Below the pieces are notes generated by a model, which was not told the origin of the DNA, made no database searches, and saw only the letters and a program-made list of their open reading frames with translations. A DNA stretch of 52,641 nt from an uncultured Bacilli bacterium. Its GTDB lineage: Bacteria > Bacillota_I > Bacilli_A > RFN20 > CAG-449. The DNA lies in the NCBI GenBank assembly GCA_947627505.1, contig CANQWG010000005.1, positions 1 through 52,641 on the forward strand, given 5' to 3'. The number at the start of each line of letters is the position of its first letter. Position 1 is the stretch's first letter. Shown in pieces: positions 25,623 to 46,100 of this stretch. The position numbers and the translations under genes are program-made.

Positions 25623-28087
25623 CGGAAGTAAAACTAGAAATTACAGGGATGACTTGTTCCGCCTGTTCAAGCACCGTTGAAAAATCTTTAAAAAAGGTTG
25701 AAGGAGTTATAAGCGCAGAAGTTAATCTTTTAACTAATAGTGCAAAAGTATCTTTTGACGAGCAAAAATGTGATATCGATAATTTAATCAATGCTGTTTC
25801 TAAAGCAGGATATGGAGTTGCTCAAAAAAAACACCGGGAATCAAGTGAATTAAAAAAATACGATGAAAGTGCCAAAAAAACCAAGGAACGTCTTTTGGTT
25901 TCGATTTGCTTTTTAATTTTATTAATGTATGTGTCGATGGGGCATATGATCGGATTACCATTGCCACCATTTATTGCTGGAGAAGAAAACATTATTACGT
26001 TTGCTTTTGTTCAATTTCTCTTAGTGCTTCCGATTGTTTTCTATAACCGAGAATATTATATTTCCGGCTTTAAAAAATTATTTCATCTATCTCCGAATAT
26101 GGACACTTTAGTGGCTATTGGCTCTACCGCGGCTTTAATATATGGAATATTTGCGATATGCAGGATCGGAAATGCTTTAGCGGTTCAAGATTTAGCAACA
26201 GTTCAAGCATATCATATGGATCTTTATTTTGAATCGGCGGGAACAATTTTAACTTTGGTCACCGTAGGCAAATATCTTGAGAGTCGCTCGAAAAAAAAGA
26301 CGAGCGAAACTTTAGATAAATTAATGAACCTTTCACCGAAAACCGCTTTAAAAATTCAAAATAATCTCGAAATTGAAACTCCCGTTGAAAATATCATGAT
26401 CGGTGATATCCTACTTTGTAAACCCGGAATGGTTATCGCTTGCGATGGAGTGGTTGTCGAAGGAGAATCGACTATCGATGAATCGATGATAAGCGGTGAG
26501 AGTATGCCGGTATATAAATCTAAGGGTAATAATGTCTTTTCAGGATCGATAAATACTGTAGGTACTATCAAATATGAAGTTACAAAAAGAAATGAAGATT
26601 CAACTGTAGCGACGATTGTAAAACTTGTCGAGGAAGCTTCGGCATCAAAAGCTCCGATTTCTCGATTTGCAGATAAAATCAGCGGAATTTTTGTTCCATG
26701 TGTGATTGGAATAAGTATATTAGCCACGATTATTTGGTTAATATGTGGTGCAACTGTAGAATTTAGTCTTTCCATTGGAATTTCTGTTTTGGTCATCTCA
26801 TGCCCATGTGCCCTTGGCTTAGCGACACCTTTAGCAATTATGGTAGGTACCGGAGTAGGCGCTACCGATCATATATTAATAAAATCAGCAACAGCTTTAG
26901 AAAATCTTCATAATGTATCGTATGTTGTATTTGATAAAACCGGAACGATAACTGAAGGAAAACCGAAAGTTCAAACTGTTCTATTTAAAGAAGATAATAA
27001 ACAAGAAATTCTTTCAATTATTATGGGGTTGGAACAATTGTCTTCACATCCTTTGGCAAATGCAGTAGTATCCTATTGCAAAGAAAATAATATTGAAATT
27101 GCCACGATTTCAGATTTCGAAACGATAGTCGGCAAAGGAATAAAAGGAGTTTATCAAGGTGAAGAATATTATTGTGCTAGTTATTCTTATGCAATAGAAA
27201 AGGGCCTATCTTTTGATGAAAAAGACCTTGCCGCTATACAAAAAGAGGGCATGACTTTATTGGTTTTCTTTTCTGAAACTAAAATTTATGCTTTACTTGG
27301 TGTCAGTGATACGATCAAACCATCAAGTGCTGAAGCGATACGAAAGCTAAAAGATTTGGGAATCAAAACATTGATGCTTACAGGCGACAATGCTGCAAGC
27401 GCGAATTATATTGCTAAGCAACTTGAATTAGATGAAGTTAAATATGAAGTGCTGCCGGAAGAAAAAGAAAAAGTTATCGCAGATTTACAAAAAAAAGGAT
27501 TTAAGGTTGCGATGGTTGGCGATGGAATAAATGATTCAATCGCATTGACTAAAGCGGATATCGGCATAGCAATCGGTGCCGGCTCAGATATTGCTATTGA
27601 TTCGGCTGATGTTATTCTAATGAGAAGTGACTTAATGGATGTCATTGATGCGATTAGATTAAGCAAAAAAACGATTAATAATATTAAGATGAATCTTTTT
27701 TGGGCTTTCTTCTACAACGCGATTGGAATTCCGCTTGCAGCAGGAGTGTTATATCAGCCATTAGGCTTAAAACTAAATCCGATGATTGCCGCGGCGGCGA
27801 TGAGTTTATCAAGTGTTTGTGTTTGCTTAAACGCTTTGAGAATAAAAAGTTTCAAACCATCAATAAGAAAGGAGGAAGAATTTATGGAAAAAAACTTTAT
27901 TGTTGAAGGGATGATGTGTGAGCATTGTGTTAAACACGTTAAAGATGCTTTATTGTCATTGCCTAATGTTACGGAAGTAGAAGTCAATTTGAAAACTAAA
28001 GAAGTCAAATTGAAAAGCAAAAACCCTTTAGATAACGAAGTGATCAAACAAAAAATTCAAGAAGCTGGTTACGAAGCGATTTTTTAA
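25619..28087 (+). CDS. copA: Cu(I)-exporting P1B-ATPase with N- and C-terminal HMA domains
   Basis: GMTCSAC, CPC, DKTGT, GDGIND, YN and MSLSS motifs, C-terminal GMMCEHC. Confidence 0.95.
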   Translation: MTEVKLEITGMTCSACSSTVEKSLKKVEGVISAEVNLLTNSAKVSFDEQKCDIDNLINAVSKAGYGVAQKKHRESSELKKYDESAKKTKERLLVSICFLILLMYVSMGHMIGLPLPPFIAGEENIITFAFVQFLLVLPIVFYNREYYISGFKKLFHLSPNMDTLVAIGSTAALIYGIFAICRIGNALAVQDLATVQAYHMDLYFESAGTILTLVTVGKYLESRSKKKTSETLDKLMNLSPKTALKIQNNLEIETPVENIMIGDILLCKPGMVIACDGVVVEGESTIDESMISGESMPVYKSKGNNVFSGSINTVGTIKYEVTKRNEDSTVATIVKLVEEASASKAPISRFADKISGIFVPCVIGISILATIIWLICGATVEFSLSIGISVLVISCPCALGLATPLAIMVGTGVGATDHILIKSATALENLHNVSYVVFDKTGTITEGKPKVQTVLFKEDNKQEILSIIMGLEQLSSHPLANAVVSYCKENNIEIATISDFETIVGKGIKGVYQGEEYYCASYSYAIEKGLSFDEKDLAAIQKEGMTLLVFFSETKIYALLGVSDTIKPSSAEAIRKLKDLGIKTLMLTGDNAASANYIAKQLELDEVKYEVLPEEKEKVIADLQKKGFKVAMVGDGINDSIALTKADIGIAIGAGSDIAIDSADVILMRSDLMDVIDAIRLSKKTINNIKMNLFWAFFYNAIGIPLAAGVLYQPLGLKLNPMIAAAAMSLSSVCVCLNALRIKSFKPSIRKEEEFMEKNFIVEGMMCEHCVKHVKDALLSLPNVTEVEVNLKTKEVKLKSKNPLDNEVIKQKIQEAGYEAIF

Positions 28088-28157
28088 AAATTAAGTAAAA
28101 TAAAAATAGTTTTATCGATTAGAAAAATCTTTTATAATTAATAAAGGAGTATCCTCG

Positions 28158-29000
28158 ATGAACTATTTTTTATTTGAAATTTTTGGAATTGAATTTGAAT
28201 TAAATATTTCATTAGTAATTACCCTTTTAACTGGCATTGCTTTAGGGATTGTAATCACTTTTTTATTATACCTTTATAGCGCTTTGCTGTCGTTAAGAAA
28301 ATCTCGATATATTATTGATAATTCTTTTGTGGATATCAAAGATGAAGATGTTATCAAACTTATTGAACATTACAAGCATGAATATAAATATCGGATTCAA
28401 GATCCAAATTTAAAAGATACAGCTTTTACTTCATGTGTCAAAGAAGAAGTTCTTCAAATCGCCAAATGGTATCATCCAAAATCCAAACATCCAATGGCAG
28501 AATTGACTTTTGATGAACTTGTGCTATTAAGTAAATATATAACAGATCGAGTTGAAAATATATTTTCCAATCGCATGCTTTCAATTCTTAGAAAGATGAA
28601 GTTATCGACAGTTATTTCGTTAATAGAAGTTAAAAATTCTAAACCGGTTAAAACCATAAACGAACATAAAATTCCTGAAAAAGTCAAAACTATGATGTCG
28701 GCACTTAATTTATTAAATCCTTTTCATTGGTTAAAAAAAGCAATTGTAGATAATTCTATTTCGATAATTATAAAAAAAATATGTTTACTTATCATCCAAA
28801 TCAGCGGTGAAGAAGCATATAAGGTTTTCTCACGAAAAGTATTAATCGATGAGAATGAAACTTATCGAAAAATGTTTGAAGAAATAGAAGAAGAGATCAA
28901 ACGCGAGCAGAAAGAAGAAAAACGACAAATTAAGTTACAACAAAAAAATAATAAAAAGAACAATAAAGAAAATAAGCAAAAAGAAAAAGTTAGTAACTAG
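28158..29000 (+). CDS. Hypothetical membrane-anchored protein with charged coiled-coil tail
   Basis: SD AAGGAG; N-terminal TM helix; K/E-rich C-terminus. Confidence 0.75.
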   Translation: MNYFLFEIFGIEFELNISLVITLLTGIALGIVITFLLYLYSALLSLRKSRYIIDNSFVDIKDEDVIKLIEHYKHEYKYRIQDPNLKDTAFTSCVKEEVLQIAKWYHPKSKHPMAELTFDELVLLSKYITDRVENIFSNRMLSILRKMKLSTVISLIEVKNSKPVKTINEHKIPEKVKTMMSALNLLNPFHWLKKAIVDNSISIIIKKICLLIIQISGEEAYKVFSRKVLIDENETYRKMFEEIEEEIKREQKEEKRQIKLQQKNNKKNNKENKQKEKVSN

Positions 29001-29062
29001 ATAGTTCTTACATTATCGTTTTATTCATCTATTTATATAAGTGATATTGATGAATAAGATTT
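28978..29062 (+). repeat. Left direct repeat of the island (degenerate spmA promoter/start)
   Basis: ~85 bp nearly identical to 42497..42582. Confidence 0.9.
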
Positions 29063-29349
29063 TTAATGAAATCATATTGATGAATTGATTTTTATAAAGA
29101 ACTACTAAGAATTATAATTAATAATAAAATTAATCAGATTAAAGTCAAAATTGAAAGAAGCAATTTCAAGAACAAAAAGTCATTTTAGTTATAAGGATTG
29201 AATTCAAATTAATTTATAATATCGTACTATTAGTCTAAAAATAATATGAAGTTGCAAATTTTGACAATAATTATTACAATTTAATAAATTTTACATTTTT
29301 TAAAGGGTGGGTTCTTATTATCACATTTTTTATATAGCAAATATAGGGG

Positions 29350-29865
29350 TTGGGGAATATGGTACGATTTATTAAAGGACTAATGACTTTAGATAAAAGA
29401 GCATACGAAGAATTTTATAGAAAATATTATGTGAAACTCTTTAATATTTTAAATAATATGTTTAGAAGTAAAGAGGATGTGGAAGATATAATTCAATCGT
29501 TGGTTATAGAATTACCCAAAAAATTACAAAGTTATTCTGGAGACTACTTTGACTCTTGGATAATAAAAGTAGCTAAGAATCATGCGATATCTTATTACAG
29601 AAAGTATAAGGGTAAAACTATTGCACTTGATGAAAGCAAGATTCAAACTGATGAATCAAATAAGACTAATGCTATTATTGAGTTTGAAGATTTGCGAGAT
29701 TACCTCACTACAGAAGAATTTCTGTTAGTTTATTTGTATTATTGTGAAGGTCATACCTATCAACAAATTCAGAAAATTATGGATATTTCTGATTATGGTT
29801 GCAGAAATTTAAAAAATAAAGCAATGGTAAAAATTGAAGAATATGTAAGGAGGAATAATCAATGA
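29350..29865 (+). CDS. ECF-type RNA polymerase sigma factor (start uncertain, 29350 or 29359)
   Basis: AYEEFYRKY...DVEDIIQ...FDSWIIKVAKNHAISYYRK (region 2); LYYCEGHTYQQI (region 4). Confidence 0.8.
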   Translation: MGNMVRFIKGLMTLDKRAYEEFYRKYYVKLFNILNNMFRSKEDVEDIIQSLVIELPKKLQSYSGDYFDSWIIKVAKNHAISYYRKYKGKTIALDESKIQTDESNKTNAIIEFEDLRDYLTTEEFLLVYLYYCEGHTYQQIQKIMDISDYGCRNLKNKAMVKIEEYVRRNNQ

Positions 29866-30491
29866 AAAAAAGTGAAATCAAAAAACTTCTTAGCCAATAT
29901 GATTGTAGCGATATTGATCCTAAAGAAGCGTTTAATAAGCTTGAAGGGAAAATAGAATTTAAAGAGGAGAAAAAGATTAGTTTTAAAAAAAGACCATTTA
30001 TCGCTTTTGCTTCTATAATTTGTTTAATGTTAATTGGTTCAATTGGTTTTAATGTGGTTCAGTATTTATTTCTTAATAGACCAGTTGAAAACATTCAGCA
30101 CAATACTGTAATGGTTGACACAAATGAATATATAGAGGCTGCAAAAGTTTATTTGAATGAAGTATGTGATTCTTATGAAATCTTACCAGATCAAACTTCT
30201 TTTATAGATTCTATTTATGTTATAAATCTGTATAAAGGCTATTCATTTAATGATGATGGTGAATTCACTTTAAACTATTATTATCAAATATATTCGTTTT
30301 TAGATGGTACATCGAATTTGGAATTTCATTTTTTTCAAGAAGATAATTTGATATATAGCTTATTTGGCAGTGAAGAAAAGCAAATTATGGGAAATTTGAA
30401 TAATGCAATTCCGCTATTAAAGGAAGGACTTTTATTAATAAAAGTTTATGAATATGATTATCTTATAAAACAAATTTCATTTATTTTATAA
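29862..30491 (+). CDS. Putative anti-sigma factor (single TM)
   Basis: ATGA overlap with the ECF sigma; short cytoplasmic N-terminus, one TM helix, extracellular domain. Confidence 0.6.
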   Translation: MKKSEIKKLLSQYDCSDIDPKEAFNKLEGKIEFKEEKKISFKKRPFIAFASIICLMLIGSIGFNVVQYLFLNRPVENIQHNTVMVDTNEYIEAAKVYLNEVCDSYEILPDQTSFIDSIYVINLYKGYSFNDDGEFTLNYYYQIYSFLDGTSNLEFHFFQEDNLIYSLFGSEEKQIMGNLNNAIPLLKEGLLLIKVYEYDYLIKQISFIL

Positions 30492-30544
30492 ATTTCAACA
30501 AATTTCGCCTCCTAAAATCGTTATAAAAGTATAGGAGGTTTTTT

Positions 30545-32149
30545 ATGAAAATTATATTTATTATTCCGCTAATTATTGGAGCATTCACTACTATTCAAAG
30601 TGATGGAAAAGTACAAGAATCTAGACTTAATAAAATAGTCTTTGAGGATTTTAACAAATCGAATCTTACTGAGGGTAACTTTGAGATTACTAATTCATCA
30701 ATAATGATAAAATTAAATTATGAAATGAAAAACAATGTTTTATTAAATGAAGATGAATCATTTGAAAATTATCATGCACGTTTATTACAAGTAGGAAGAG
30801 AATTTCACGAACAAAAAAATAAAGATATCGTTGAGTCTTCTTTACTAGGTAAAATTCCAAACTTGTATGTGTCTGCATACGCACCCTATGTTTCTTTTAA
30901 AAGTGATGAAACAACTGATTTAAATATGCTTTTAGATTTAACTAGTGATAATAATATAGAAAAAATAATTGTAACGGATTCTCAATCAACTAAACCAGAA
31001 CTAGAATTGGCAAAAGAATTTGTTGGCGTTCGATCGACTATTACATCAGGAGAGCTAACAGGAAAAGGTATCACAGTGGGTATTCTTGAACCTAATATTC
31101 TAGATAAATCCCATGAAAATTTTGGAGATACTGATGTACTTGTAAGAGATGAATGGCTATATAATGAAACCATATCAGATCACACAACTATAATGGGTTC
31201 CATAATAGCTGGGAAAAATGGTATTGCACCAAAGGCAAAATTATTAAGTGTCGAATTAAATGGGGATGCTTTAAGTGAAATAGATTGGTTACTAGATAAT
31301 GGCGTAAATATTATTAATTGTAGCTATGGGGATGCATCGCCAACAGGAGTTTATTCATCAAAATCTGCCTATATGGATTATATTTCTAACATATATCGAA
31401 TTACATTTGTTGCTTCATCTGGAAATACTGGTACTACAGATAAATATGTTGCAAATCCAGGATTGGGTTATAATGTTATTACGGTTGGCGCAAGTTCTAG
31501 TACTACTGCGCATCGCCGTACTTTTTCATCTTATGTTGTAAAAGATGGTCCAAGCAAACCAAATATTCTTGCACCAGGTCATAGTATTAATGTGAAACCA
31601 TTTGGAGCACAAGAAGGGACAAGTCTATCTGCTGCAATAACAACAGGATGCATCGCTCTTATGATGGAAAAGGTAACGGCTTTTCAAACTAATCCTGCGC
31701 TATTAAGAGCGATTTTAATGGCGAATGCAAAAGTTCCATCGGATGCTTATAGACAAACATACGGATTGCATGATCAAATAGGTGCTGGGTGCATAGATTT
31801 CAAAGAAACTATAAATAATATAGGCGGATTAACACAATTTCACAACACTCAAAATAAATCAAATTTAGGTGGCAAAGGCGAGTTGGTTCAAAGCGGACAA
31901 AGTATTAGAGCTGCGCTTTCTTGGATGGCTTATTCAAATGGTAATGCTGATAGTATCGCATTTACTGATTATGATATTGTAATAAAAAATTCTAGTGATG
32001 ATATTCTATTGAGTAGCAGTGGAAACGAAGAAAATCTAGAATTTTTAGATTACACAGTCACAAAAACAGATGTGTATATGATTGAAGTATTACAAAATGG
32101 AAACATTGTACAAAATGATTTCATAGGACTAGCATATCGAATATTCTAA
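30545..32149 (+). CDS. Secreted subtilisin-like S8 serine peptidase
   Basis: GKGITVGILE, DHTTIMGSIIAG, SSGN, GTSLSAA; signal peptide and prodomain. Confidence 0.88.
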   Translation: MKIIFIIPLIIGAFTTIQSDGKVQESRLNKIVFEDFNKSNLTEGNFEITNSSIMIKLNYEMKNNVLLNEDESFENYHARLLQVGREFHEQKNKDIVESSLLGKIPNLYVSAYAPYVSFKSDETTDLNMLLDLTSDNNIEKIIVTDSQSTKPELELAKEFVGVRSTITSGELTGKGITVGILEPNILDKSHENFGDTDVLVRDEWLYNETISDHTTIMGSIIAGKNGIAPKAKLLSVELNGDALSEIDWLLDNGVNIINCSYGDASPTGVYSSKSAYMDYISNIYRITFVASSGNTGTTDKYVANPGLGYNVITVGASSSTTAHRRTFSSYVVKDGPSKPNILAPGHSINVKPFGAQEGTSLSAAITTGCIALMMEKVTAFQTNPALLRAILMANAKVPSDAYRQTYGLHDQIGAGCIDFKETINNIGGLTQFHNTQNKSNLGGKGELVQSGQSIRAALSWMAYSNGNADSIAFTDYDIVIKNSSDDILLSSSGNEENLEFLDYTVTKTDVYMIEVLQNGNIVQNDFIGLAYRIF

Positions 32150-32152
32150 TAA

Positions 32153-32416
32153 ATGCTTAAGGGTAAAAATGTTAATATCCGAGATTGCCCTAAAAATCTA
32201 AAGACATATTTATTTGAAGTACTTTCTCTGTATGATAGTGTGCATAGCACTATTTATAGTAAAGAATTTTATTATATTTATATTGATTGTCAATTATATT
32301 CTTTAAAAGAACTTGGCGAAATTTTAAATATCTCTAATACTGCATTGCACGTCCATATGCATAAAATTAATAAGTACATAGATATTGCAACTGAAAGAAT
32401 TAAAGTAAGACAATAA
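32153..32416 (+). CDS. Small sigma-region-4-like HTH protein
   Basis: YSLKELGEILNISNTALHVHMHKI helix-turn-helix pattern. Confidence 0.5.
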   Translation: MLKGKNVNIRDCPKNLKTYLFEVLSLYDSVHSTIYSKEFYYIYIDCQLYSLKELGEILNISNTALHVHMHKINKYIDIATERIKVRQ

Positions 32417-32420
32417 ACTT

Positions 32421-32454
32421 AAACGTTCGACTAAGCAAGTTGGACGTTTTTTTT
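32421..32454 (+). terminator. Intrinsic terminator
   Basis: AAACGTTCGACT-aagca-AGTTGGACGTTT plus T-run. Confidence 0.75.
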
Positions 32455-32560
32455 CAAAATTTCTCGCGCGTAATTATAACATAAAAAATAGTCAAGTGGG
32501 ATACCGAAAATCGGTATCCATCTTTGACAAAAAACGACATTATAATCGAGGTATAAAGGA

Positions 32561-33085
32561 GTGTTTATTATGGATTTTTCAGGTTTGACGAATTATGAAT
32601 TTTTTGTCCAATTAGGATATGTAACCATCATATCTAGCATCTTAACGATGTTGATCACTTGGATCATCAAAATGATTCTCAAAAAAAGAAAAGTGATTAA
32701 GGAGGGAATGGATCCAACGGAGAAGGATCAAATACTTTCAAAGGTAGGAAGAATAGTAGCCTTAATAATCTATACAGCTTTATATCTCGGAAATGAATTC
32801 TATCTGAAACACACCATTACTTTAGATGGAACATTATTGACCGGTTTATTTAGTGGAGCGACCTTAACTTTAACGTTGGCTAAAGGTTTCTATACGATGA
32901 TTAGGCAATATCAAAAGAAAAAGAATGTTTTTGAGAAACTTAAGTATTGTGAAGAAACGATTCAAAAACTACAAGAGCCACATGTTCCAAATCAACCGGT
33001 AGAGGAATTAATAACTCATGTTGTTACTAGTGAATCGAAAAATAGATGGATATTAAGCAATAACAATAAGGAGGAAACAAAATGA
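32561..33085 (+). CDS. Three-TM membrane protein, holin-like topology
   Basis: Three hydrophobic segments and a charged tail; ATGA overlap with the RHS gene. Confidence 0.7.
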   Translation: MFIMDFSGLTNYEFFVQLGYVTIISSILTMLITWIIKMILKKRKVIKEGMDPTEKDQILSKVGRIVALIIYTALYLGNEFYLKHTITLDGTLLTGLFSGATLTLTLAKGFYTMIRQYQKKKNVFEKLKYCEETIQKLQEPHVPNQPVEELITHVVTSESKNRWILSNNNKEETK

Positions 33086-36000
33086 AAAAAATTGTTGTAT
33101 CGAAAGAAGAGTTAAAAGAAGAAAAAATGAAAGTAAATAAGCAAACTTCCCATGTGTCTAATCAAAAAGAAACATCAAATAATAGTAAAGAAATTAAAAA
33201 GCCAAATTCTACTCTTAAAGTTAAAGTAAAAACAATTACTTTCGGAATTGATAATGGAGATGGTAATTTTGAATTACAAGAAGATGAAAATGGATTCAAA
33301 ACAACAAAAGGGAAATTCACGAGTTATTTTGCTAAATCACTAGATGAAAAAGAACTTGTAAAATTAAGCAAAGATAATCATGAAGTATCTTTAAACTTTT
33401 TGGGAAAGAAATCAAAAATTGGAAAGATCTCTAAAGTAAGAGGAAAAGTAATTTCTAGTAAGAAAGAGAAGTCATCCATTAGTTTTGAAAACTTTGAAAA
33501 AGGATTAGATTTAAACTATGAAGTCCATTCTCATGGAATCAAAGAAAATATTATCGTAAGAGAAAAACAAGATGAATATAGTTTTGACTTTAGTTTAAAT
33601 ATCGGAAGTTTAACACCACGATATAACGAAGAAATAAAATGTATTGAACTTTGTGATAACGACAAGATAATCTATAGAATTTTAAGTCCATATATGAAAG
33701 ATAGTAGTGAAAAGACATCATTTGATTGTTTCTATGATATTGAACAAGATGGAGAAGTACTAAACCTAACCTTAATAGCAGATGCTTCTTGGATTAATGA
33801 TGATAAAAGAGTTTTACCGGTTATTATTGATCCGACTATTGAGGTGATACAAGAAATGATGGAAATGTATTCAGTAAAAAATTCATTTAGGAACGAAAAT
33901 TTTAATGAATTTTATCAAGTTGGATATATAGACATATTGTTTGACTTACTTAAGTATAGTGTTGACTTTGATATTAATCGGGCCATTATTAAAAATGAAG
34001 TAAATACTTTATCTAAAGTTTTTTTAAGATTTGTTGTTAAAGAGATTAGTGAAAAAGAGGATGATTATTATATCTCTGTAGTTAATAAAAATAATATAAT
34101 TCTAAAAATAGATAAAAATAATTTATCAGGAGATCATCTTATAGATATCACAGATCTTTTTAATAATTCAGATGAAGATATTATAACTATAAGTTTAAAA
34201 TATGTAGGAACAAATAAGTATTGTACCATACAAGTATATTCTCCATATGCTGATGAAAATCTAAAACCTCAGCTTTATATTGAATATCTTGATGAAGTGG
34301 ATGAAGGTAATATCGTCACAAATGAGTACTATGTTGGTCAAGCAGGAACTACTTTTGTTAATTTAAAAACAGGAAGTTTTAAACATTATCATAGTGATGC
34401 TAGTATCAATCATAATGCTTTATCAATTAATATAAATCATGTATTTGATTCTCAAATTTTTAATGGAAATAAAGATGAGATTTCACCAAGCTATATTGGA
34501 AAAGGATGGAAAACTAATTTACAACAATACTTAATTAAATCTGATACTTTCAGTCAAGTTTTTGGATGCAAAGATGTGACATATGTTGACGGAGATGGTA
34601 AAAGGCATAACCTAATCGAAAAATGGTATTATATTGATGAAAATAAAGTAAAGCATTTTGTTTCAAAAGATAATATTTTTGTTGATGACGATCAAGAAAT
34701 AAAATATCTAGACTCGGATTCGGTAAAGCATAAGGTAAAACTCGAAGTTACTAATGAAGAAGGATTATCATATATTTCTGGCTCTTCAATGAATGACTTT
34801 TCGAGTAATCAAATTGTAAGAAAAAGATATTTTATTAAATATGGTTTTGGTGAACGCGAAATTAGTGTCGATCCAAATGTAAAACATTATTTGCAATATT
34901 ATTTTTTAACTTCTGATGGTGAGAAAAAGACAATTGGACCATCACGGGTTAATATATCGGATGAAGGAATTTTACAAGTAATAGGTGGAAGACAAGTATT
35001 TTTAGATATCGGTTACGCAATAAATATTTCCAAAAAAGATGATGGTCATTATTATTTTACAGTAGATGATGTAGACCCTTTATTAGTATCATCAAGATCG
35101 AGCAAACCAACCGAATTCAAAGTGATAGAAAAAATTGTTGTTGAAGAAAATTCGCAATTTGAAATATATGTTGATGAAAATTTAGAATCATTAAGAAGTC
35201 AAATTAATAATTTAAATCTTAGTATCGAAGAATTAAAACTATCAAGAGATAGTACAATGCAGTTATTAAATAATTACAATAAACAATTTTATGGACAAAA
35301 TTCAAATTTGAAATTGCAAATAAGCGAATATGAAGGTTTCACATATAATTACAAAGATTTAACATTTGCAAAAACAGAAGAGAACGGATGTACAGAGGAT
35401 AGTAATAAAGCTCTACAATGTATAGATGCTGGAAGATTATATCAAAGACAAACAAGAGATTACGCTGATATAAGTGCAGTTTCGCCAAATGAAATTCAAA
35501 TGAAATCGTTGAGAATGTCTTTAACAATGTCATTGTTCCAAATTTTATGTTGCGAAGAGCAATTAGGCCAAATTGTAAGCCAAATTGAAATATATGAAAC
35601 CAAAAAAAATCAATTAATAGCACAAAGAGATGCATATATTAAAAATTATAGAAAAAACGCTATTGATTATATTTTTGATAATGAAGGAAATACATTAGGT
35701 TTTGATGGATATGGTAGATTAGTTTTGCTGCAAGATACATATGAGAATAAAATAGAAATTGAATATGGTTATGAAGAAGAAAATGAGGGTAAACTGCTTT
35801 CAGTATCTTCGGAAATAGAAACAGTTAAATTTAATTATGATAATAAAACAGGTTTTTTAAAATCTATTATTGATAATAGTGGAAGAAAAACAAGATATGA
35901 ATATGATGAAAATAATGAACTAATTACAATTAAATATAACGATGGTAAAAAAACAAACTTTGATTATAGTGAAGGTTTTTCAGTTACATCTCCACGTTTA

Positions 36001-39000
36001 GAAATCAATAAAATAATTAATGATGAGGATGAATCTATTCATGTTAGAACGTACTGCTTAAAAAGTACTTTTGATCGTGACAGTAAAATTTTTCAAAATA
36101 TAATTGATAAAAATACAAAAATAGTTGGAAATGAAAATATTGAAAATGTGTTAGATCATCATTACACATTTGATAAAGATTTAAAATTAACAATAATTAC
36201 AGATGATAATAAAAAAGAAAACGTTAAATACTTTTTTGATTCAATTGGAAATGTTCTAAAATTAGACGAAATTAAAACTACAAAAGTCTCATTTTTTGAA
36301 GGTAAAATGTTAAAATCGGAAGTCGAATATAAAACTTATGATATAGATAATTTAGATAATAGTCCGGTTTTAGAATCGCTAACTATTTATCCTTCTTCAC
36401 ATACTTATAAATATGATTTAACTAGTTTTGATAATTTGCCATTATCAAATATGTTAGGTCTTAAAATCGATGTTGTAACTGGTAATGTAGATGAAGAGTC
36501 TATTTTGGTTTTTAAAGTAAAAGCTACGGTTCAGACCACTAATCAGGATGGAACGATAAAACAAGAAGTCTTTGAACAAGAATATCAAGAAATTAAGTTA
36601 CAGACTATTGTACTTCCTATTTGTATTGATAGGAATTTATCTTCCGATTTAACCATTGAAATAACTGCTGAATCATCTGAATTTAATGAAACTTATTTTG
36701 ATTCTATCGATTTAATTAAACTTGAAAGTGGCGCAATTTACACCTATGATATAGAAAATCATTTAATTAAAAAACAAGATGGCATTAATACTATAATTTA
36801 TGAAGATTATAATGATAATAATATTCCTTTGAAGGTTATAAAAACAGATATTTATGGAGATGAACTAGTTATATCATGTAGTTATAACAATCAAAACAAA
36901 ATTTCGAATATCGAAGATAGTAAAGGAAACGTTAAAGAATACTATTATAACGATAAAGGACAATGTATTGAAAGGAGAACCTATAATAAAAAAGATGCAT
37001 CTTTGATGAAAGTGAGGAAAGCTGAATACGATGAACAAGGAAGAGTGTTATCTATTAAAGGACAAATCAAAGATAGAAAAGGTAATTATCCTACCGAAGA
37101 AGTAACTTATTTACCAAACACAAATATTCAAAGTAAAATTAAAGAAGTAAATGGAGAAACTACATGTTATACTTATGATTTTAACACAGGAGATCTACTT
37201 AGTATTTCTTCAAGTGCTGAAGGAATCAATAATTCCAAATCGTTTACTTATAACTATGGTTTACTAACCTCATTAGCACATCATGGAATGAAAGTTGATT
37301 ACATTTATGATGGAAAGGGAAGAAAAGTTCAAATTAGTTTAAATGGTAGTAATTATTTACGTAATATTTACGATGATAATTATAAAAATAATGATCTAAA
37401 AATCAAGCATGGTAGTTTTGTCGAAACCGAATTTGAAGCTGACTATAAAACTAGTTATATAACTGATGATGAGAATAGATTAAAATTATTAAGTTTTAAT
37501 AGTGATATACATCAGGGTGAAAGCATATATGACTATGAAGATGAAAACTTAACAAGAGTCATTTCTAATAAGACGAATCTAGATACTCAGGAAGTTTTTA
37601 CAGAAGTTTTAGAAAAATCATATGATGATTATAATAATGTTACAGATTTTACCAAGACTGTAAATGATGATGCACATTTCTACCGCGCATTTACGTATGA
37701 TAGTAAGAATCGGTTAAGTAAAGAAGAAATCAGCATCCAAGATGGTGATGTTTTACAAACTGAGTATCAATATGATGAAGATAATAGAATAACGAAATTA
37801 GATATTAAAGGACTATTTACAATTAATTACGATTATGATGTTCTAAATAGAGTAAAGCATCAAAATATTGAAATAGATAAAAGTAGTAGCTATTCTTCAC
37901 AAAAAATAGAGTTGTGCCACGAATATAGTTATTTGCAACAAGATGAAAATAGTTTGGATTTAGTTGCTGAGAATCGAACCAAAGTCATTGTAAGAAAAGA
38001 GTCTATATCTGAAGAGAACAAACTAATACCTATTAAAATTTATATGACTGAGACAAGCAAATATAATTATGATGAAAGTGGTAATATCATTGAAATCGAT
38101 GCTGATGATAGTTTAACAAGATATCAATACGATAAATTAAATCGCCTTGTAAGAGAGGATAATCCAAAATTAAATAAGACCATTACCTATAAGTACGATA
38201 GTGCAGGAAATATTCTTTTAAAGAAAACTTATGAATATACTCTAGAAGATAAATTGTATTCACCAAAAGTAGATGAATATACTTATGAATGTGATGGATG
38301 GAATGACCAATTACTATTCTTTAATGGCAAACAGTTTGAATATGATAAAATGGGACGTCCAATTACTTATATGGATAATTTGTTAGAATGGGAAAGTAAT
38401 GGAAATTTATTAAGTTTCATGAGTGAAGAAGTGGAGGCTTATTATTCCTATGATGCAAATGGTATAAGAAGAAATAAGATTGTTAATGATGTTGAAACTT
38501 CATTCATCGTCGATGGAACAAGAATACTAAGGGCAATTACCAAAAATGGGATATTAACATACAAATATGCTCTTAACAAATTGATTGGTTTCAATTATAA
38601 TGATGGTAGTAATAGCAAAGAATATATCTACTTAAGAAATATACAAGGTGATATTATTGCTATATACGATGATGAAGGAAATGAAGTAGGGGGATATGCA
38701 TATGATGCTTATGGTAATCACATAATTACTAATGATGTAGATGGAATTGCAACTCTTAATCCATTTAGATATCGTGGATACTATTATGATGAGGAAACAG
38801 GACTATATTATCTAAATAGTAGATATTATGATCCGAAGACAGGAAGATTCATTTCACCTGATATTATTTCAATCTTAGATGAAACAACGGCACAGATTAA
38901 CGGACTAAATCTCTACATGTATTGTGGGGATAATCCAGTGATGAATGTGGATCCAAGCGGAAGATTTTTCTTCTCCTTCTTGGCTGCAATTTTAATAGCA

Positions 39001-39555
39001 GCGGTCGCAGGAGGAGTAATAGGAGGAGCAATAGGAGGAGTTGCAGCTGCGGTTAATGGACAAGATTTTTGGAGTGGTGCGTTAGCTGGTATGGCAGCGG
39101 GTGCCCTAGTTGGATTAGGAATAGGCATTGGAATTGTCGTGATAGAAGGAATGTCTGTATTACTAGGGCTAGGTATTATAGGAACGAGTCTTTATGCTGT
39201 AGGATCGAATATAGCTAAAGTTATACATAGTTATAACATAGTGGCACAATATGATAATTTAGACTATTCTGATATCATTATTAATTCAAAAGATCCTAGA
39301 TTGATTGTTACGAAACTTTTAACTGATGATGAAACTATTATGAAATATGTTAATTACTTGTATGAAAAAGTTGATGGAGTTAAAGAAAATTGGACAAAAG
39401 AACAATTATATCGAGAGTTAAAGTATCATAGGCTAGGATCGAGTAATAATTTTGTAAATCTAATTTTTGAGAGTCATCTTAGAACTGCTGATGTTGAAGA
39501 AACTCAAACGTTTAGATCGTATTTCTTAAGATTCTTTGGAAATATGTTATGGTAA
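33082..39555 (+). CDS. RHS/YD-repeat polymorphic toxin
   Basis: YD repeats; core [35 protein letters not shown]...[14 protein letters not shown]; 197-aa C-terminal domain. Confidence 0.93.
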   Translation: [2157 protein letters not shown]

Positions 39556-39580
39556 AATAAAATTAAAGGGGGAAACTAAT

Positions 39581-40237
39581 TTGAAAAAAAGAACATGGAT
39601 GTTATCATTACTTTCATCAGTACTTTTATTAACTTCTTGTACTAATAAGTGGGTACAGCAGGATTGGCATATAAACACTTTAGAACTTGCTGATGAGTAT
39701 TTTCCTAAATATTTTGACGAGATTGAAAAAACATTGCAAAAGAATGATGTTATGTATAAAAAAGAATATACAGAGAAAGTAGATGACCAATATACTAAAT
39801 TTTATATGGCAAAATACTATGTTACTGAGTCACTTTTCTATGAGGTAACATTATTCTACGATTATAGTTTTAATTATAGATTCACTTCTTCTACTATCAT
39901 TCTTTTTGGCTTAATTTATAAATTAGCAACTGAAGAAAAAGCTTTCAATATTCCACAGAATTATATGAATATCATTATTGATGTAACTGATTTTTGCTGT
40001 AATAATTTGCTAGGTACAGGAGAAAAATTTAATACACTTTATGATGAAGCAAAAGAAAAATATATAAATGGAGAGCATTTAAATGGCAAAGATGATAAAT
40101 ATGTTTTTGTAGATGAAAAGATGTGGGAGGAAACACCGCCGCATAGATGGATTGAAGTGCGATTCAAAGATAATGAATACAATGTAGTGATTGGATTACT
40201 AGACTATCTAACCGATGTAAACATTTGGGATAAATAG
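39581..40237 (+). CDS. Putative immunity lipoprotein, copy 1
   Basis: SD AAGGGGG, TTG start, LLLTSC lipobox; immediately after the RHS gene. Confidence 0.8.
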   Translation: MKKRTWMLSLLSSVLLLTSCTNKWVQQDWHINTLELADEYFPKYFDEIEKTLQKNDVMYKKEYTEKVDDQYTKFYMAKYYVTESLFYEVTLFYDYSFNYRFTSSTIILFGLIYKLATEEKAFNIPQNYMNIIIDVTDFCCNNLLGTGEKFNTLYDEAKEKYINGEHLNGKDDKYVFVDEKMWEETPPHRWIEVRFKDNEYNVVIGLLDYLTDVNIWDK

Positions 40238-40405
40238 TTTTCTCAAAATAAATAAAATAGTTACTAAGAATTTAAACACTGAAAACTGAATAAAAACTTA
40301 GTAGCTTTTTTAACTAAAGATATAAAAGATAATTTATCAAGAGATAATTAAATTTAAGATGGAATCTTTTTTCATGGTAAAATAAAATTAAAGGGGGAAA
40401 CTAAT

Positions 40406-41047
40406 TTGAAAAAAAGAACATGGATGTTGTCATTACTTTCATCAGTACTTTTATTAACTTCTTGCACTAGTAAGTGGGTACAGCAGGATTGGCATATAAA
40501 CACTTTAGAACTTGCTGATGAGTATTTTCCTAAATATTTTGACGAGATTGAAGAAATATTGCAAAAGAATGATGTTATGTATAAAAAAGAATATACAGAG
40601 AAAGTAGACCCATATACTAAATTTTATATGGCAAAATACTATGTTACTGAGTCACTTTTCTATGAGGTAACATTATTCTATGATTGTAGATCTACTGCTT
40701 ATAGTATCATTCTTTTTGGCTTAATTTATACATTAGCGACTGAAGAAGAGGCATTCAATATTTCACAGAATTATATGAATATCATTATTGATGTAACTGA
40801 TTTTTGCTGTAATAATTTGCTAGGTACAGGTGAAAAAATTAATACACTTTATGATGAAGCAAAAGAAAAATATATAAATGGTGAGCATTTAAATGTCAAA
40901 GATGAAAAATATGTTTTTGTAGAGGAAAGGATGTGGGAGGAAACACCGCCAGATAGATGGATTGAAGTGCGATTCAAAGATAATGAATACAATGTAGTGA
41001 TTGGATTACAAGACTATCTAACCGATGTAAACATTTGGGATAAATAG
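40406..41047 (+). CDS. Putative immunity lipoprotein, copy 2
   Basis: Close paralogue of copy 1. Confidence 0.8.
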   Translation: MKKRTWMLSLLSSVLLLTSCTSKWVQQDWHINTLELADEYFPKYFDEIEEILQKNDVMYKKEYTEKVDPYTKFYMAKYYVTESLFYEVTLFYDCRSTAYSIILFGLIYTLATEEEAFNISQNYMNIIIDVTDFCCNNLLGTGEKINTLYDEAKEKYINGEHLNVKDEKYVFVEERMWEETPPDRWIEVRFKDNEYNVVIGLQDYLTDVNIWDK

Positions 41048-41300
41048 TTTCCTCAAAATTAAATAAAATAGTTACTAAGAATTTAAACACTGAAAATTGA
41101 ATAAAAACTTAGTAGCTTTTTTAACTAAAGATATAAAAGATAATTTATCAAAAAATAATTAAATTTAATATTGAATTTTTTCTCGATGCCTTGAATCATA
41201 TCTTGATAAGAACCAGAGAGAAGAAACTATTAATTAGCAAAAGGGAAATCTTTTAAAGTTTTGATAAAATCTATTATTTTTTTAGCATTAAACATATTGT

Positions 41301-41554
41301 GATATTGACATTTAAATATGCTCTTAAAAAATTAATTGTTTTCGACTATAATGAGAGTAACAATAGCAAAGAATATATCTACTTAAGAAATATACAAGGT
41401 GATATTATTGCTATATGATTCATTTCACTTGATATTATTTCAATCTAATTTTGTAAATCTAATTTTTGAGAGTCATCTTAGAACTGCTGATGTTGAAGAA
41501 ACTCAAACGTTTAGATCGTATTTCTTAAGATTCTTTGGAAATATGTTATGGTAA
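41301..41554 (+). pseudogene. Internally deleted RHS 3' remnant
   Basis: Three fused pieces matching 38550-38665, 38846-38875 and 39448-39555. Confidence 0.85.
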
Positions 41555-41579
41555 AATAAAATTAAAGGGGGAAACTAAT

Positions 41580-42233
41580 TTGAAAAAAAGAACATGGATG
41601 TTATCATTACTTTCATCAGTACTTTTATTAACTTCTTGTACTAATAAGTGGGTACAGCAGGATTGGCATATAAACACTTTAGAACTTGCTGATGAGTATT
41701 TTCCTAAATATTTTGACGAGATTGAAGAAATATTGCAAAAGAATGATGTTATGTATAAAAAAGAATATACAGAGAAAGTAGACCCATATACTAAATTTTA
41801 TATGGCAAAATACTATGTTACTGAGTCACTTTTCTATGAGGTAACATTATTCTATGATTGTAGTTTTAATTGTAGATCTACTGCTGATAGTAACATTCTT
41901 TTTGGTTTAATTTATACATTAGCGACTGAAGAAGAGGCTTTCAATATTCCACAGAATTATATGAATATCATTATTGATGTAACTGATTTTTGCTGTAATA
42001 ATTTTCTAGGCACAGGTGAAAAAATTAATACACTTTATGATGAAGCAAAAGCAAAATATACAAATGGAGAGCATTTAAATGTCAAAGATGAAAAATATGT
42101 TTTTGTAGAGGAAAGGATGTGGGAGGAAACACCGCCAGATAGATGGATTGAAGTGCGATTCAAAGATAATGAATACAATGTAATGATTGGAGTAGATGAC
42201 TATCTAACCGATGTAAACATTTGGGATAAATAG
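41580..42233 (+). CDS. Putative immunity lipoprotein, copy 3
   Basis: Close paralogue of copies 1 and 2. Confidence 0.8.
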   Translation: MKKRTWMLSLLSSVLLLTSCTNKWVQQDWHINTLELADEYFPKYFDEIEEILQKNDVMYKKEYTEKVDPYTKFYMAKYYVTESLFYEVTLFYDCSFNCRSTADSNILFGLIYTLATEEEAFNIPQNYMNIIIDVTDFCCNNFLGTGEKINTLYDEAKAKYTNGEHLNVKDEKYVFVEERMWEETPPDRWIEVRFKDNEYNVMIGVDDYLTDVNIWDK

Positions 42234-42496
42234 TTTTCTCAAAATTAAATAAAATAGTTACTAAGAAGTAAAATACTAGAAGGATTTAGACTTGATGTAA
42301 CTAGTGTTACTAAAAAAGGATTAAGAGGTGTTGAAGTTTTTAGTAGTAGTCAAACTTATGTTAGCCAAGTGCTAAAGTTGGCAGAATAATTGGACAATAT
42401 TCTTACATTTTTAATGGACTAACCATAGACACTTTACGATTAATTACAAGTTGGCTTATATTTTAAAAACGTTAACTTTTTTGTTTTTGACCATTT

Positions 42497-42582
42497 AAAA
42501 AGAAAAAGTTAATAACTAGATAGTTCTTACATTATCGTTTTATTCATTTATTTATATAGGTGATATCAAATGAATAAGATTT
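42497..42582 (+). repeat. Right direct repeat of the island (intact spmA promoter/start)
   Basis: Matches 28978..29062. Confidence 0.9.
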
Positions 42583-43157
42583 GGATTGGAATTATTGTTA
42601 TTTCAATTATTTATGGATTAGTTACAGGTAGGTTTGACGCTTTGGCAAACTCGATTTTAGCATTGCCGGAAAAGGGCTTGAATCTTGTTTGTACATTGGT
42701 TTTTTCTGCTTGTTTTTGGAATGGAATTATGATGATCATGTATGATAGTGGTCTTATCGATAAAGTTGCTAAAGCTTTGAATCCGCTATTAAATCTTATC
42801 ATGCCGAATTTAAAAGATGAGGAAGCAAGAAAATATATTTCTTCCAATATTGCCGCAAATATGTTTGGTCTTGGTTTTGCAGCTACTCCAAGCGGTTTAA
42901 AAGCGATGAAAAGATTAAAGATGATTTCACCGGAAGATGAAAAGACAGCTTCCGATGAAATGGTCACATTTTTGATTTTAAACACTGCCGGAGTGACATT
43001 GATTCCTACTACAGTGATGGCGATAAGACATAGTTATGGTGCTTCAAATCCCACGGATTTCATCATATATGGTATTATCGGCACGCTTTTATCTTGTGTA
43101 TCAGGACTTTTATTAGATCGTTATTATCGTAAGAAGGCGCTAAAAAACAAAAGATAA
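42570..43157 (+). CDS. spmA: Spore maturation protein A
   Basis: MNKIW, NIAANMFGLGFAATPSGLKAM, ASDEMVTFLILNTAGVTLIPTTVMAIR. Confidence 0.95.
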   Translation: MNKIWIGIIVISIIYGLVTGRFDALANSILALPEKGLNLVCTLVFSACFWNGIMMIMYDSGLIDKVAKALNPLLNLIMPNLKDEEARKYISSNIAANMFGLGFAATPSGLKAMKRLKMISPEDEKTASDEMVTFLILNTAGVTLIPTTVMAIRHSYGASNPTDFIIYGIIGTLLSCVSGLLLDRYYRKKALKNKR

Positions 43158-43173
43158 AACTACATATAATATT

Positions 43174-46100
43174 TTAATTTTTAGACATTGATTTTTTCTT
43201 TTTGGTTACAAAAATTATCGCTGATAAGATAGAGATTATGCCGATGATAGCAATAACTCCGCTAATTAAAACTATTGTTTCAACATTATTATTTGAATTT
43301 ACAATATTAAATTCTAGAGTTTTTGTACCAGAATAGTTTCCCTTGAATTGGATTGTTATTGTAGCTTTACCGGTTTCGATGTTATTAGAATATGTGATAT
43401 CGTAATCAACACCATTGACTAAATCGGTTTTTTTATCATTTTCTGTTATAGAAATTTCCAACTCGGGATTTATTGCTTCACCGGTATAAGTTTGATCTTC
43501 GATAGACAAAAGGTTGCTATCTAATTGCACTTCTTTTGGAGCAATCGTGAAAGTGGAATTGATTATACCACGATAATTGCCTTTAAAATTGATTGTGAAT
43601 GAAGCTTCGCCGGCAGAAATATTATTTGAAAATACGATATCATAATCAACTCCATTTATAAGGGTAACAGATTGATCGTTAATTTTGACCTCGATGTTTG
43701 GAGTGATTTCTTGACCAGTATAACTGGTTTCATCTAAAACAGAAATGGTTACATCTTTAGAACTTAATTCTTTTTGAGAAATATTGAAGTAGGAAGTTAT
43801 GGTACCTTGGAAGTTACCTTTAAATTGAATAGTGTAAGAAGCTTTGCCCGCGGAGACATTATTGTTAAAGGTTACATCATAATCGATACCATTTTTTAAA
43901 ATTACTTCTTGATTATCAATTTTAGTTGTAATTTCAATATTTGGTGTTAAAGCAGTTCCAGAGAAAACGTTGTTTTCATCGATTGTTAGAGAAACAGTTT
44001 CACTATTTAATTCAAGCGGTAATATTTCAAAGGTTGAATCTAATACTCCTTTATAAAATCCTTTACCTTCAATCGAGAAAGAAGCACTACCGACAGAAAT
44101 ATTATTTTCGCACGATTTTAAAATATAGTCGACTCCTTCTTGTAATATAACTCCATTATAACTAATAACCGGTTTCCATTGTTGTCCGTTATAAACGAAA
44201 TCACTAATCGATAAGTTTAATTCTTGAAGTTCGTCCTGCTCTAAAATTTGTCCAGTAGTTAATGCGGCATCAAAAACTAAGTTTTTAGCGACGATAGTGA
44301 CAGTATGTTGCTTATTTTCAAGCCCAGCGATAAATACGGAAGGAGATGAAGTATTATCTATAGTTATTGAATATTTTTGACCATCGATTAAAACATATGA
44401 TTCATCGTTACTCGCTGATTCTTGAGAAAAATATAACAATAAGTCTTTACCTTCAAGAATAAAGGTTATTTCTCCGGCTTGAGTTTTTTGAGCAAGTCCG
44501 TTTATAAAGTTTCCTTTGACGGGATTCCACTCATTGTAATATTCGAATTCTTCACTAGACGAACCATAGATGTTGACATTTTCGGTATTTAATGATTGAG
44601 AAACCGATATCTCGCGAATACTTGATCGATTATTGGCACTAGGACCGGTTATTTCGATAATCAAATATCTGCCATTAGTCAATTCAAATTGATCGGAAAA
44701 TTTAGTACCATAGGCGGAGTTGTCTCGATTAAAAACATTTGAGGCATTTGCGATACTTTGACTGATATTTGTAGTATCGATATTATCGGCTATATGATAT
44801 TTATATCCGCTTGGAGCATAACTAGAATCGTAAAATTCGATATTTACGTTAGAAATAGAAACTCTTTCACCAAAATCGAAAATATAATAATGCGAATAAT
44901 TATATGATGGATTTGGAGTAAACCAAGTGCCGGTGTTATTGTCGGTTAAATTCTTAATGAAATGATCACTATTTTGACCGGGAATGTTTCTTCCTTGACT
45001 ATCAATGCATTGTACTTCTTGAATTTTTTTGGTTAAATCCAAATTATTTGGATACATCCGCTTCAACAAATTGCTTTCTAAGTCATATTGTGTGTCATAA
45101 AAGAAAGGTTTTGAATTATCTTTTAAGTAGTCATCGATTACTTGTTGGCTGACATTAGGATTTAGACAGTCAGATGAAAGAATCGAGGAGTAATTAACTT
45201 TATCTTCACTATATTGAACGTGAATATATCCGGCTCCTCCGCTATTTAAACAATAGGCTTCGATAAGAATCGGTTCGTTAGGATTTACATCAATTTCAAT
45301 TTTATTTTCTTTTAAAGATATAGCCGTACCATAATCCCAATATGAGTTAATATATTGATTACAATATGCTTCTTGGCCGTTGATTTTGATATATGTGGCA
45401 TCATCGCCATAAACCATAAATGTCAATTTCTTTTTATAATCAAATATTACTTTAGTGGAAAGATAAGTGAGATTAATTCCCTCAGTCACATTAGTTGAAA
45501 GCGAGGTAGTGGTATAAGTTTTAACTTTGTGTTCTTCATTAGCAAATTGTTCAATCGCTTGTTGAACGGTATAACCATTAGAAGCACTATATTCAATCGC
45601 TTGAACTGTTTTATTGACAGCAAATTTTAACTGAACTTTTAATGTTTTTTGATATGTGGTTTCATCACCATCAAACCAGGCATTATATGTCACATCGAAA
45701 GTTATATCATCGTAATTATCATTAGGGGCAAATGTGTAAAGTCCTTCTGAAGTTTTTATCAATGTTCCGTTTTTGATATTTGTGATTGAGGCCACTTCAA
45801 AATGATCAGCGGAAGTCAAAGTTTTATCTTTAAGATCTAAAGTTACTTCACTTTGATTACGATTAAAGATATAAGGTCTTCCGGTTTCAATATTCTTTTC
45901 TCCAAGAGCGTAAACGTTCTGCAAAGAGAAGTATTTTGGATAGTTGAGATCTTTAATTTTTGCAATTGTGGTTTGGTTTAAATTGAAATGCCATAAATCT
46001 TGGAAATAATCAGTCATATCATATTTAAAGAATTGACTTGCAAAAGTTGCAAAACCATCTTCGGTTGTCGTGTAGTTATGACTAGCTCCGCTAGCTGAAA

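Follow-up and report, generated by a model that had tools for sequence, protein, structure and literature searches.

The window analysed here is a stretch of 52,641 nucleotides (nt) that makes up the whole of contig C5 in the assembly of an uncultured Bacilli bacterium (genome G000; 1.38 Mb, 60 contigs, 96.6% complete). Within it, an island of foreign DNA lies between the gene for a conserved protein of 280 amino acids (aa) and a spmA-like gene, and a direct repeat of about 85 nt bounds the island on both sides. The island carries an RHS toxin operon with its own ECF-type sigma factor, followed by genes that likely encode immunity proteins (Table 1). The name spmA was given in an earlier note on this DNA, and it rests on the dacB-spmA-spmB gene order in a genome of another family (G290) and on what is known of Bacillus subtilis. 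The locus represents a real RHS toxin and immunity island that lacks a recombinase, is located at a lineage-specific hotspot and bears the known scar of insertion with long duplication of the target. As such, it is of modest interest and fairly ordinary.

The left copy (L) of the repeat comprises 85 nt and the right copy (R) 86 nt, and exactly these two copies are found in the whole G000 assembly. In a repeat search, the first 70 nt of the copies (28978-29047 and 42497-42566, a spacing of 13,519) are 96% identical. They are followed by a spacer of 2 nt in L and 3 nt in R, and then by 13 identical nt, ATGAATAAGATTT. The 70-nt pattern matches twice in the window, and none of 100 dinucleotide-preserving shuffles contains a match. 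The repeat includes the last 23 nt of the 280-aa gene, an intergenic block and the first 13 nt of spmA; that is, the gap is duplicated entire, with the whole intergenic region and both gene ends. L starts 23 nt before the stop codon of the 280-aa open reading frame (ORF) and ends 13 nt into a stub of 12 codons, and R continues into an intact spmA-like gene of 195 aa. The duplication and its intact right copy agree with the description in the earlier note, which also stated that the left copy decays. The ribosome-binding site of L is indeed damaged (AAGTGA, versus AGGTGA in R and in the empty-site relative G002), and the stub follows it, but the repeat ends fairly abruptly rather than by gradual decay. 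BLAST prolongs the match weakly to 29075/42595 (99 nt, 88.9%). Beyond these positions, the inner flanks align with the matching gene no better than shuffled sequences do (241 of 300 and 232 of 300 shuffles score as high in local alignments), so the ends are fairly sharp.

The genus is sampled by four genomes, namely G000 and its congeners G001, G002 and G003. In G002, whose assembly is 65% complete, the 280-aa gene and spmA are separated by roughly 210 bp, and the proteins are 64% and 92% identical to those of the window. The conserved upstream block and the start of spmA occur there just once, and island DNA is absent. The tail of the 280-aa gene differs in G002, and the 23-nt gene-end part of the repeat cannot be aligned. 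Two copies of the repeat in a relative without the island would have contradicted the insertion proposed in the earlier note; the single copy in G002 is instead what an empty site should hold. In G001 and G003, both copies are found at the same site, spaced 15,296 and 12,786 nt, and the flanking 280-aa protein is 99-100% identical. The changes specific to L (A for G in the ribosome-binding site, and a spacer shorter by 1 nt) are common to G000, G001 and G003. Among 61 related genomes, homologs of the 280-aa protein occur in 32 and spmA in 35, and the two genes are on one contig only in the genus of the window.

The content of the site differs among these genomes. The operon is the same in G001, except that the middle part of the RHS gene, the C-terminus and the small ORFs are different. 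The RHS sequence of G001 diverges from the window copy from about 38829, and that of G003 diverges from about 38809. G003 is without 29456-36912 (7.5 kb, the sigma-to-RHS part) and retains 602 aa of the RHS protein, a remnant ending at the core. The remnant is followed by 10.4 kb of other DNA that encodes an AlwI-family restriction enzyme, a double D12 methyltransferase, SIR2 and HerA, and that rejoins the window sequence just 20 nt before R. Thus, the other cargo that the earlier note had suggested looking for consists of a Type II restriction-modification system together with SIR2-HerA. The restriction-modification system looks like a late arrival. With three versions of the cargo and one empty site among four genomes, the position has the properties of a hotspot. 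Between G000 and G001, the left module of the island is 96.3-99.9% identical, compared with 95.0% for copA and 94.4% for spmA. Because the island module is more identical than these flanking genes, it is more likely that the island was exchanged between the two lineages by homologous recombination through the flanks. Alternatively, the island is older than the split of G000 and G001 and is well conserved. Either way, there is no sign of self-movement.

Other sequence collections provide further views of the site. A 28-nt core of the repeat has four loci on two contigs in the genome contig collection, both of which are this site in G001 and G003, and no match in the metagenome contig collection. 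The 280-aa protein has one relative among metagenome contigs, which is 30% identical and has no spmA within 10 kb. The L junction (28942-29180) is covered by a contig from run X6 and the R copy (42477-42733) by one from run X5; the two runs belong to two other studies. The X5 contig diverges at 42477, as G003 does. In the contigs of four runs (three studies) that correspond to 27500-44000, neither a circle nor an empty-site joint between ~29,000 and ~42,500 was found in either direction; rare forms are invisible in contigs, so this result is no evidence against the excision that the earlier note envisaged.

All long ORFs of the insert are on the + strand. The sigma factor gene overlaps by 4 nt a gene for a putative anti-sigma factor, so called from its position, and a homolog of this 209-aa protein has the equivalent position in contig G018:C61 from another genus. 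Homologs of the S8 subtilase are found in 17 of the 301 genomes of the order, and in G018:C61 the gene is directly before an RHS gene. The 174-aa membrane protein is a conserved partner of the toxin, with homologs directly upstream of RHS genes in G018:C61 (54% identical) and G226:C38 (47%). RHS genes themselves occur widely in the order (83 of 301 genomes). Because the order of sigma factor, anti-sigma factor, S8 protease, 174-aa protein and RHS gene recurs in G018:C61, and the 174-aa/RHS pair in G226, the cargo can be regarded as one module. The genes from sigma factor to RHS, including the 87-aa ORF, form one operon, and the cargo is a self-contained competition module.

The 2157-aa product has the organization of an RHS polymorphic toxin, in that YD/RHS repeats and a core precede a C-terminus that diverges among relatives. 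The C-terminal ~197 aa (after approximately residue 1960) have no Pfam match, and the best Atlas score is 0.88, with no named family. This region contains a long glycine-rich hydrophobic stretch, and its sequence suggests that it probably attacks membranes. Three lipoprotein-like paralogs downstream are likely the immunity proteins of the toxin, judging by their position. An orphan rhs fragment precedes the third paralog and is pieced together from the core and the toxin gene end: 41287-41416 corresponds to 38536-38665 (86%), 41417-41446 to 38846-38875 (97%), and 41446 onward to 39447 onward (99%). Paralogs together with an orphan rhs piece are the usual picture of toxin-tip displacement. Elsewhere in G000, a second full-length RHS gene (about 2106 aa) occurs at G000:C21:1202-6763, and a pair of rhs core-end fragments repeated 1.8 kb apart occurs at G000:C28:1293-3198.

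Table 1. Features of the island, of its borders and flanking genes, and of two spmA loci in other genomes. Positions are those of the window unless a contig is named.
Feature	Position	Strand	Remarks
280-aa conserved protein, left flank	28158..29000	+	No Pfam or NCBIfam family; last 23 nt inside L repeat
L copy of duplicated target	28978..29062	+	Gene end, intergenic block and first 13 nt of spmA; ribosome-binding site mutated
12-codon stub ORF, MNKIFNEIILMN and stop	29050..29088	+	First 13 nt of spmA fused to island DNA; read from sequence
Inserted DNA, 13,434 nt	29063..42496	+	GC 0.25-0.31 in most 1-kb bins, 0.36 in left flank
ECF-type sigma factor, 171 aa	29350..29865	+	Sigma70_r2 5e-10; TIGR02937 7e-23, 81 bits versus 42.9-bit cut-off
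Putative anti-sigma factor, 209 aa	29862..30491	+	One membrane span; no family; position only
S8 subtilase, 534 aa	30545..32149	+	Peptidase_S8 2e-29
87-aa ORF	32153..32416	+	Weak helix-turn-helix hints; best Pfam E-value 0.018, below cut-off
174-aa membrane protein	32561..33085	+	No family; directly before RHS gene
RHS/YD-repeat toxin, 2157 aa	33082..39555	+	RHS_repeat (PF05593) 1e-21; Rhs_assc_core (TIGR03696) 9e-23, residues 1874-1960
Immunity candidate 1, lipoprotein-like	39536..40237	+	Signal ending LLLTSC; no family; position after toxin C-terminus
Immunity candidate, paralog 2	40406..41047	+	Repeat families D1/D2, 73-74% nt identity to copy 1
Orphan rhs fragment	41287..41534	+	Pieces of core and of toxin gene end
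Immunity candidate, paralog 3	41535..42233	+	Families D1/D2, 93-99% to copy 1
Inner right end, 20 nt	42477..42496	+	Kept in G003 and in run X5 contig despite different cargo leftward
R copy of duplicated target	42497..42582	+	Intact ribosome-binding site; leads into spmA
spmA-like gene, right flank, 195 aa	42570..43157	+	Gate domain 2.9e-6, 28.1 bits, below Pfam cut-off of 29.6
spmA-splitting insert of G290	G290:C1:84000-97000, locus positions 3252-10029; insert about 3579-9747
spmA duplication of G014	G014:C21:22000-32000, locus 2654-7052	minus

Family scans revealed no recombinase or transposase domain in any island ORF of at least 80 aa, and no Pfam recombinase domain is present in the G000, G001 or G003 version of the island. 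Searches of all three versions by tblastn with five recombinases, namely the four tyrosine recombinases of G000 and the large serine recombinase of G290 (see below), returned nothing at E<=1. The island is therefore integrase-free, as had been claimed from the sequence. The four tyrosine recombinases are all encoded on other contigs of G000, and the genome has no match to PF00239, the family used to search for serine recombinases. Comparison of G000 with itself by BLAST yields 14 intra-contig repeat pairs, ten of which are in one region of C2. Of the four pairs outside this region, only the pair on C5 described above bounds an island, one (C28) and one (C5) are rhs fragments, and one (C6) is at a contig end. 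The C6 pair is a 94-nt direct repeat (88%; G000:C6:44201-44288 and 48094-48187) with copies 3.9 kb apart, the second of which touches the contig end. It surrounds a 302-aa ORF, a 308-aa ORF with a P-loop motif recognized by eye, and a 388-aa ORF.

Neither copy of the repeat contains a sigma-70-type promoter match or a terminator. Before spmA, genera g1 and g3 share TCATYTATT followed after 5-6 nt by AGGTGA, and several other genera have CATATATT 8-9 nt before the start. The TCATYTATT and CATATATT blocks are similar to the -10 element that mother-cell sporulation sigma factors recognize, although a full consensus could not be fitted. Sporulation-sigma consensus motifs did not fit the repeats with convincing spacing. 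The earlier note identified the repeat as the spmA promoter. What points to such a function is the upstream block conserved in two genera, and the repeat may or may not include the promoter. No terminator is predicted between the upstream block of L and the ECF-sigma/RHS operon. A dif/Xer-type site was also considered for the repeat, and no good match was seen by eye; the window is origin-proximal and includes gidA, gidB, parA and parB.

Insertions at spmA are found in other genera as well. Homologs of spmA are present in 54 of the 301 genomes of the order, and 4 of the 54 have split or multiple matches. In G290, dacB is followed by the N-terminal part of spmA, an insert of 6.17 kb, the C-terminal part of spmA and spmB. 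The insert encodes AbiH, an HNH endonuclease, a helix-turn-helix protein, a SymE-like protein, a 565-aa large serine recombinase and an FRG-domain protein. Its junctions share about 15 nt around spmA codon 110, and spmA is intact in the congeners G186 and G226. On the evidence of its sequence, the insert looks like a new sporulation-gene intervening element. A literature search that covered few subscription-journal papers found no report of spmA as the target of such an element, and this element may interest sporulation researchers more than the island does.

G014 has an intact spmA and, 2.2 kb upstream of it, a second copy of approximately 320 nt of the 5' part of the gene, with 100% identity. 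A stop at codon 3 interrupts this additional copy, whose end falls within the core that the G290 element uses. Between the copies, 1.9 kb of DNA contain small ORFs without a Pfam family; past an inserted gene for a DUF4143/AAA_14 ATPase, the final 71 nt of spmA occur again (86%). The G016 assembly breaks inside the same core, at the start of G016:C43 and the end of G016:C70, with a 7-nt overlap. In the same genome, two large serine recombinases that share 39% and 34% identity with that of G290 are encoded in tandem at G016:C54 372-3468, on another contig whose start contains no spmA sequence. G014 and G016 likely contain remnants or breakpoints at the G290 core in two other genera. In G083, the two parts of spmA are at the ends of two contigs, with the division near residue 141-143. 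In G088, which belongs to another family, an RHS gene and two small ORFs lie directly before spmA-spmB (G088:C106 3-4829). The RHS gene runs off the contig start, and no second copy of the spmA upstream region was found, the left end being beyond the contig. Thus, spmA is a recurrent landing site in the order. This suggests a route in which an element in spmA is overcome by patch repair, but it does not show that the island of the window arose so.

Insertion accompanied by long duplication of the target has reportedly been described for restriction-modification gene units by Nobusato et al. in 2000. From the observations above, we infer a comparable origin for the repeat. Probably, a non-autonomous genomic island inserted between the 280-aa gene and spmA and duplicated about 85 nt of its target, and the site later became a variable hotspot. 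Insertion into the short gap would have copied the gap whole, and because of this both flanking genes would have been kept intact: the 280-aa gene would retain its last codons in L, and spmA would retain its upstream block, ribosome-binding site and start in R. The spmA stub of L would have been left to decay. The insertion would predate the split of G000, G001 and G003, and the content of the site would afterwards have turned over by ordinary recombination. During this turnover, the toxin C-terminus would have been displaced at the RHS core, and G003 would have undergone the 7.5-kb deletion of the sigma-to-RHS part and gained the Type II restriction-modification system and SIR2-HerA.

The simplest route to this arrangement would be one crossover between the chromosome and a circle that carries the 85 nt, a route that we regard as a real possibility with somewhat less than an even chance. 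The alternative is repair of a break, as discussed for restriction-modification units. The earlier note had proposed the single crossover of a circle, and the footprint does fit this proposal, with insertion tied to duplication of the target. However, the same footprint also fits long target duplication and patch repair. The note further suggested that the 85 nt are an unusual attachment site. They would at most be a candidate attachment site, as the core occurs only at this site and no element with a recombinase was found to use it. The site is not unusual in kind, since such arrangements are already published, as passages of PMC2853133 indicate.

Several points count against insertion of an island with target duplication. 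The only empty site is that of G002, a distant congener (about 70-80% nt identity) with a gap of ~210 bp rather than 47, so the state of this lineage before insertion is deduced and not seen. The single copy in G002 could also result from a deletion between the repeats. The higher identity of the island than of its flanks could mean recent spread rather than old age. Because no circle, empty-site variant or donor element was found, crossover and break repair cannot be distinguished as origins. ComEC was not found in the 96.6%-complete assembly, while most published cases are naturally competent species; DprA is present in the assembly. Finally, in the portions of PMC2853133 that define it, the published class is based on restriction-modification cargo, with restriction and modification genes in the insert. 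Such genes are absent from the G000 and G001 versions and occur only in that of G003, and the RHS toxin operon is what two of the three versions have in common.

Other explanations of the repeat can be weighed against the same data. It is scarcely credible that the arrangement is an assembly artefact of a metagenome bin. G000 is an assembly of 60 contigs, and unitigs of the probable source run break at the repeat, but the two junctions are also seen in two assemblies of other samples, contigs of X6 and X5 from two further studies span the L junction and the R copy, and fixed differences distinguish the two copies. The repeat might also have come first, by local tandem duplication of the gap, with foreign DNA later landing between the copies by chance. 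This order of events is recognized as the third class in the pertinent part of PMC2853133, and cargo turnover that leaves the repeats untouched is compatible with it. Nevertheless, it is very unlikely: the one genome without the island, G002, has a single copy, adjacent copies lacking an insert are seen in no genome, and the borders of the repeat and of the foreign DNA match exactly. A decayed site-specific element, in which a tyrosine-integrase element used the 85 nt as its attachment site and lost its integrase, is quite unlikely. Direct repeats that include the 3' end of a gene are typical of tyrosine-integrase sites, and the 20-nt inner right end persists where the cargo differs. Such an element may still be mobilized in trans by one of the four tyrosine recombinases that G000 encodes on other contigs. 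However, the three island versions contain neither an integrase nor a relic of one, the 28-nt core is confined to this site, and no third, internal copy of the repeat suggests accretion. The lack of a circle or empty-site contig in the four runs points the same way, weakly, as it concerns contigs only.

The loci in other genera bear on patch repair. In this explanation, an element inserted at the start of spmA, and the L junction at nt 13 is the old left junction. A stretch that brought an intact gene end, upstream block and spmA was later recombined in downstream; spmA was thereby repaired, and the right end of the element was lost with its recombinase. The missing recombinase and the duplication would thus be explained in one step, and G014 provides a parallel, with a dead 5' copy of spmA, 1.9 kb of recombinase-free cargo and finally a complete spmA that has an upstream region of its own. 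Yet nothing points to a site-specific target at nt 13 of spmA, no terminal inverted repeat is evident by eye at the island ends, and two events are needed where one would do. Moreover, the history of G014 is ambiguous, as its 5' copies are 100% identical and its 3' copies 86%. We therefore consider this origin of the island unlikely. The same low probability applies to a broader proposal, that the duplication is the scar of a general route by which spore-formers neutralize elements in spmA through a downstream patch, with the window (codon 5) and G014 (codon ~110) as two outcomes. If this route is real, the end with the recombinase is lost and the cargo stays trapped as an integrase-free island. 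As a corollary of this proposal, toxin production could be tied to sporulation, because the upstream block of L now faces the ECF-sigma/RHS operon.

If the island did insert with duplication of its target, as we favour, it adds an example without restriction-modification genes in its operon (an RHS operon, joined later by defence systems) to the poorly understood class of long target duplications. If toxin cargo uses the same route, then DNA cutting by the cargo itself cannot be the whole cause of insertion. In these uncultured, small-genome Bacilli of animal guts, toxin and defence genes came to be lodged in a broken-up dacB-spmA-spmB region while the sporulation gene was kept.

The gene order dacB-spmA-spmB of G290 is broken up in the window. 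Positions 24287-25306 and 25320-28087 contain a dacB-like S11 peptidase gene and then csoR-copA, and these are followed by the 280-aa gene, the island and spmA. A gene for a 1525-aa M60-like peptidase lies after spmA on the opposite strand (43174-47751), and a weak Gate-domain protein (E 0.005; 48058-48576) is probably the spmB product. The window has no tRNA genes, and 27500-44000 has no Rfam match at E<=1. A second AT-rich stretch (4000-8000, GC 0.22-0.28) encodes a helix-turn-helix protein along with ORFs of 157, 156 and 201 aa that lack a Pfam family. It is followed by a 656-aa ORF without a family (7822-9792).

Known systems resemble the island in different respects. The skin, SPbeta and gin elements, as portrayed in sections of PMC5595907, also place foreign DNA at a mother-cell sporulation gene, and G290 provides what looks like a true case of this type for spmA. 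In contrast, the island leaves the reading frame whole, neither it nor the G000 genome encodes a serine recombinase, and its repeats are far longer than serine-recombinase cores. A CIME, described in part of PMC5704250 as a decayed element that lacks integration genes and keeps attL and attR, shares with the island flanking direct repeats that include a gene end, the absence of integration and transfer genes, and room for accretion. Unlike the CIMEs of that account, the island has no functional element related to it, no relic of an integrase and no sign of a recombinase site. The three versions contain no relic of an element with integration and transfer genes, descent from which is part of the concept.

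Hotspots of Escherichia coli (PMC10121019) and the core defence hotspots of Pseudomonas aeruginosa (PMC10250203) are, on the evidence of extracts from these reports, similar in having a fixed position that is empty or holds varied defence and toxin cargo. The cargo of the E. coli hotspots, according to the same portion of PMC10121019, is mostly on recognizable mobile elements, whereas the site in the window has no mobility gene and a long target duplication. The rhs loci with C-terminal displacement, as outlined in excerpts of PMC2935791, correspond to the cargo in their core, variable C-terminus, immunity-like genes and orphan fragment. Compared with what those excerpts cover, the cargo differs in its small genome of Gram-positive type, its own ECF sigma and anti-sigma factors, its S8 protease, its 174-aa partner and a C-terminus without a known family.

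The closest comparison is with the long target duplications of Furuta, Abe and Kobayashi (2010; PMC2853133), for which the passages relevant here describe recombinase-free inserts of less than 20 kb and target duplications of more than 30 bp, with a range of 46-423 bp. In two published cases, the target overlaps the 3' end of a gene, and some are duplications of a promoter or gene end. According to these passages, the authors could only suggest DNA breakage, linked to restriction enzymes, as the cause, and the mechanism was unresolved. Three of the four defining features that these passages give are found in the window. The direct target duplication exceeds 30 bp and is unique (85 and 86 nt, two copies), the target aligns once in the insert-free genome G002 apart from the 23-nt gene-end part, and the insert is smaller than 20 kb (13.4 kb) and has no mobile-element gene. 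A particular feature of the window is that the duplicated target is a whole intergenic region with both gene ends. The island works like a member of this class, outside its original definition.

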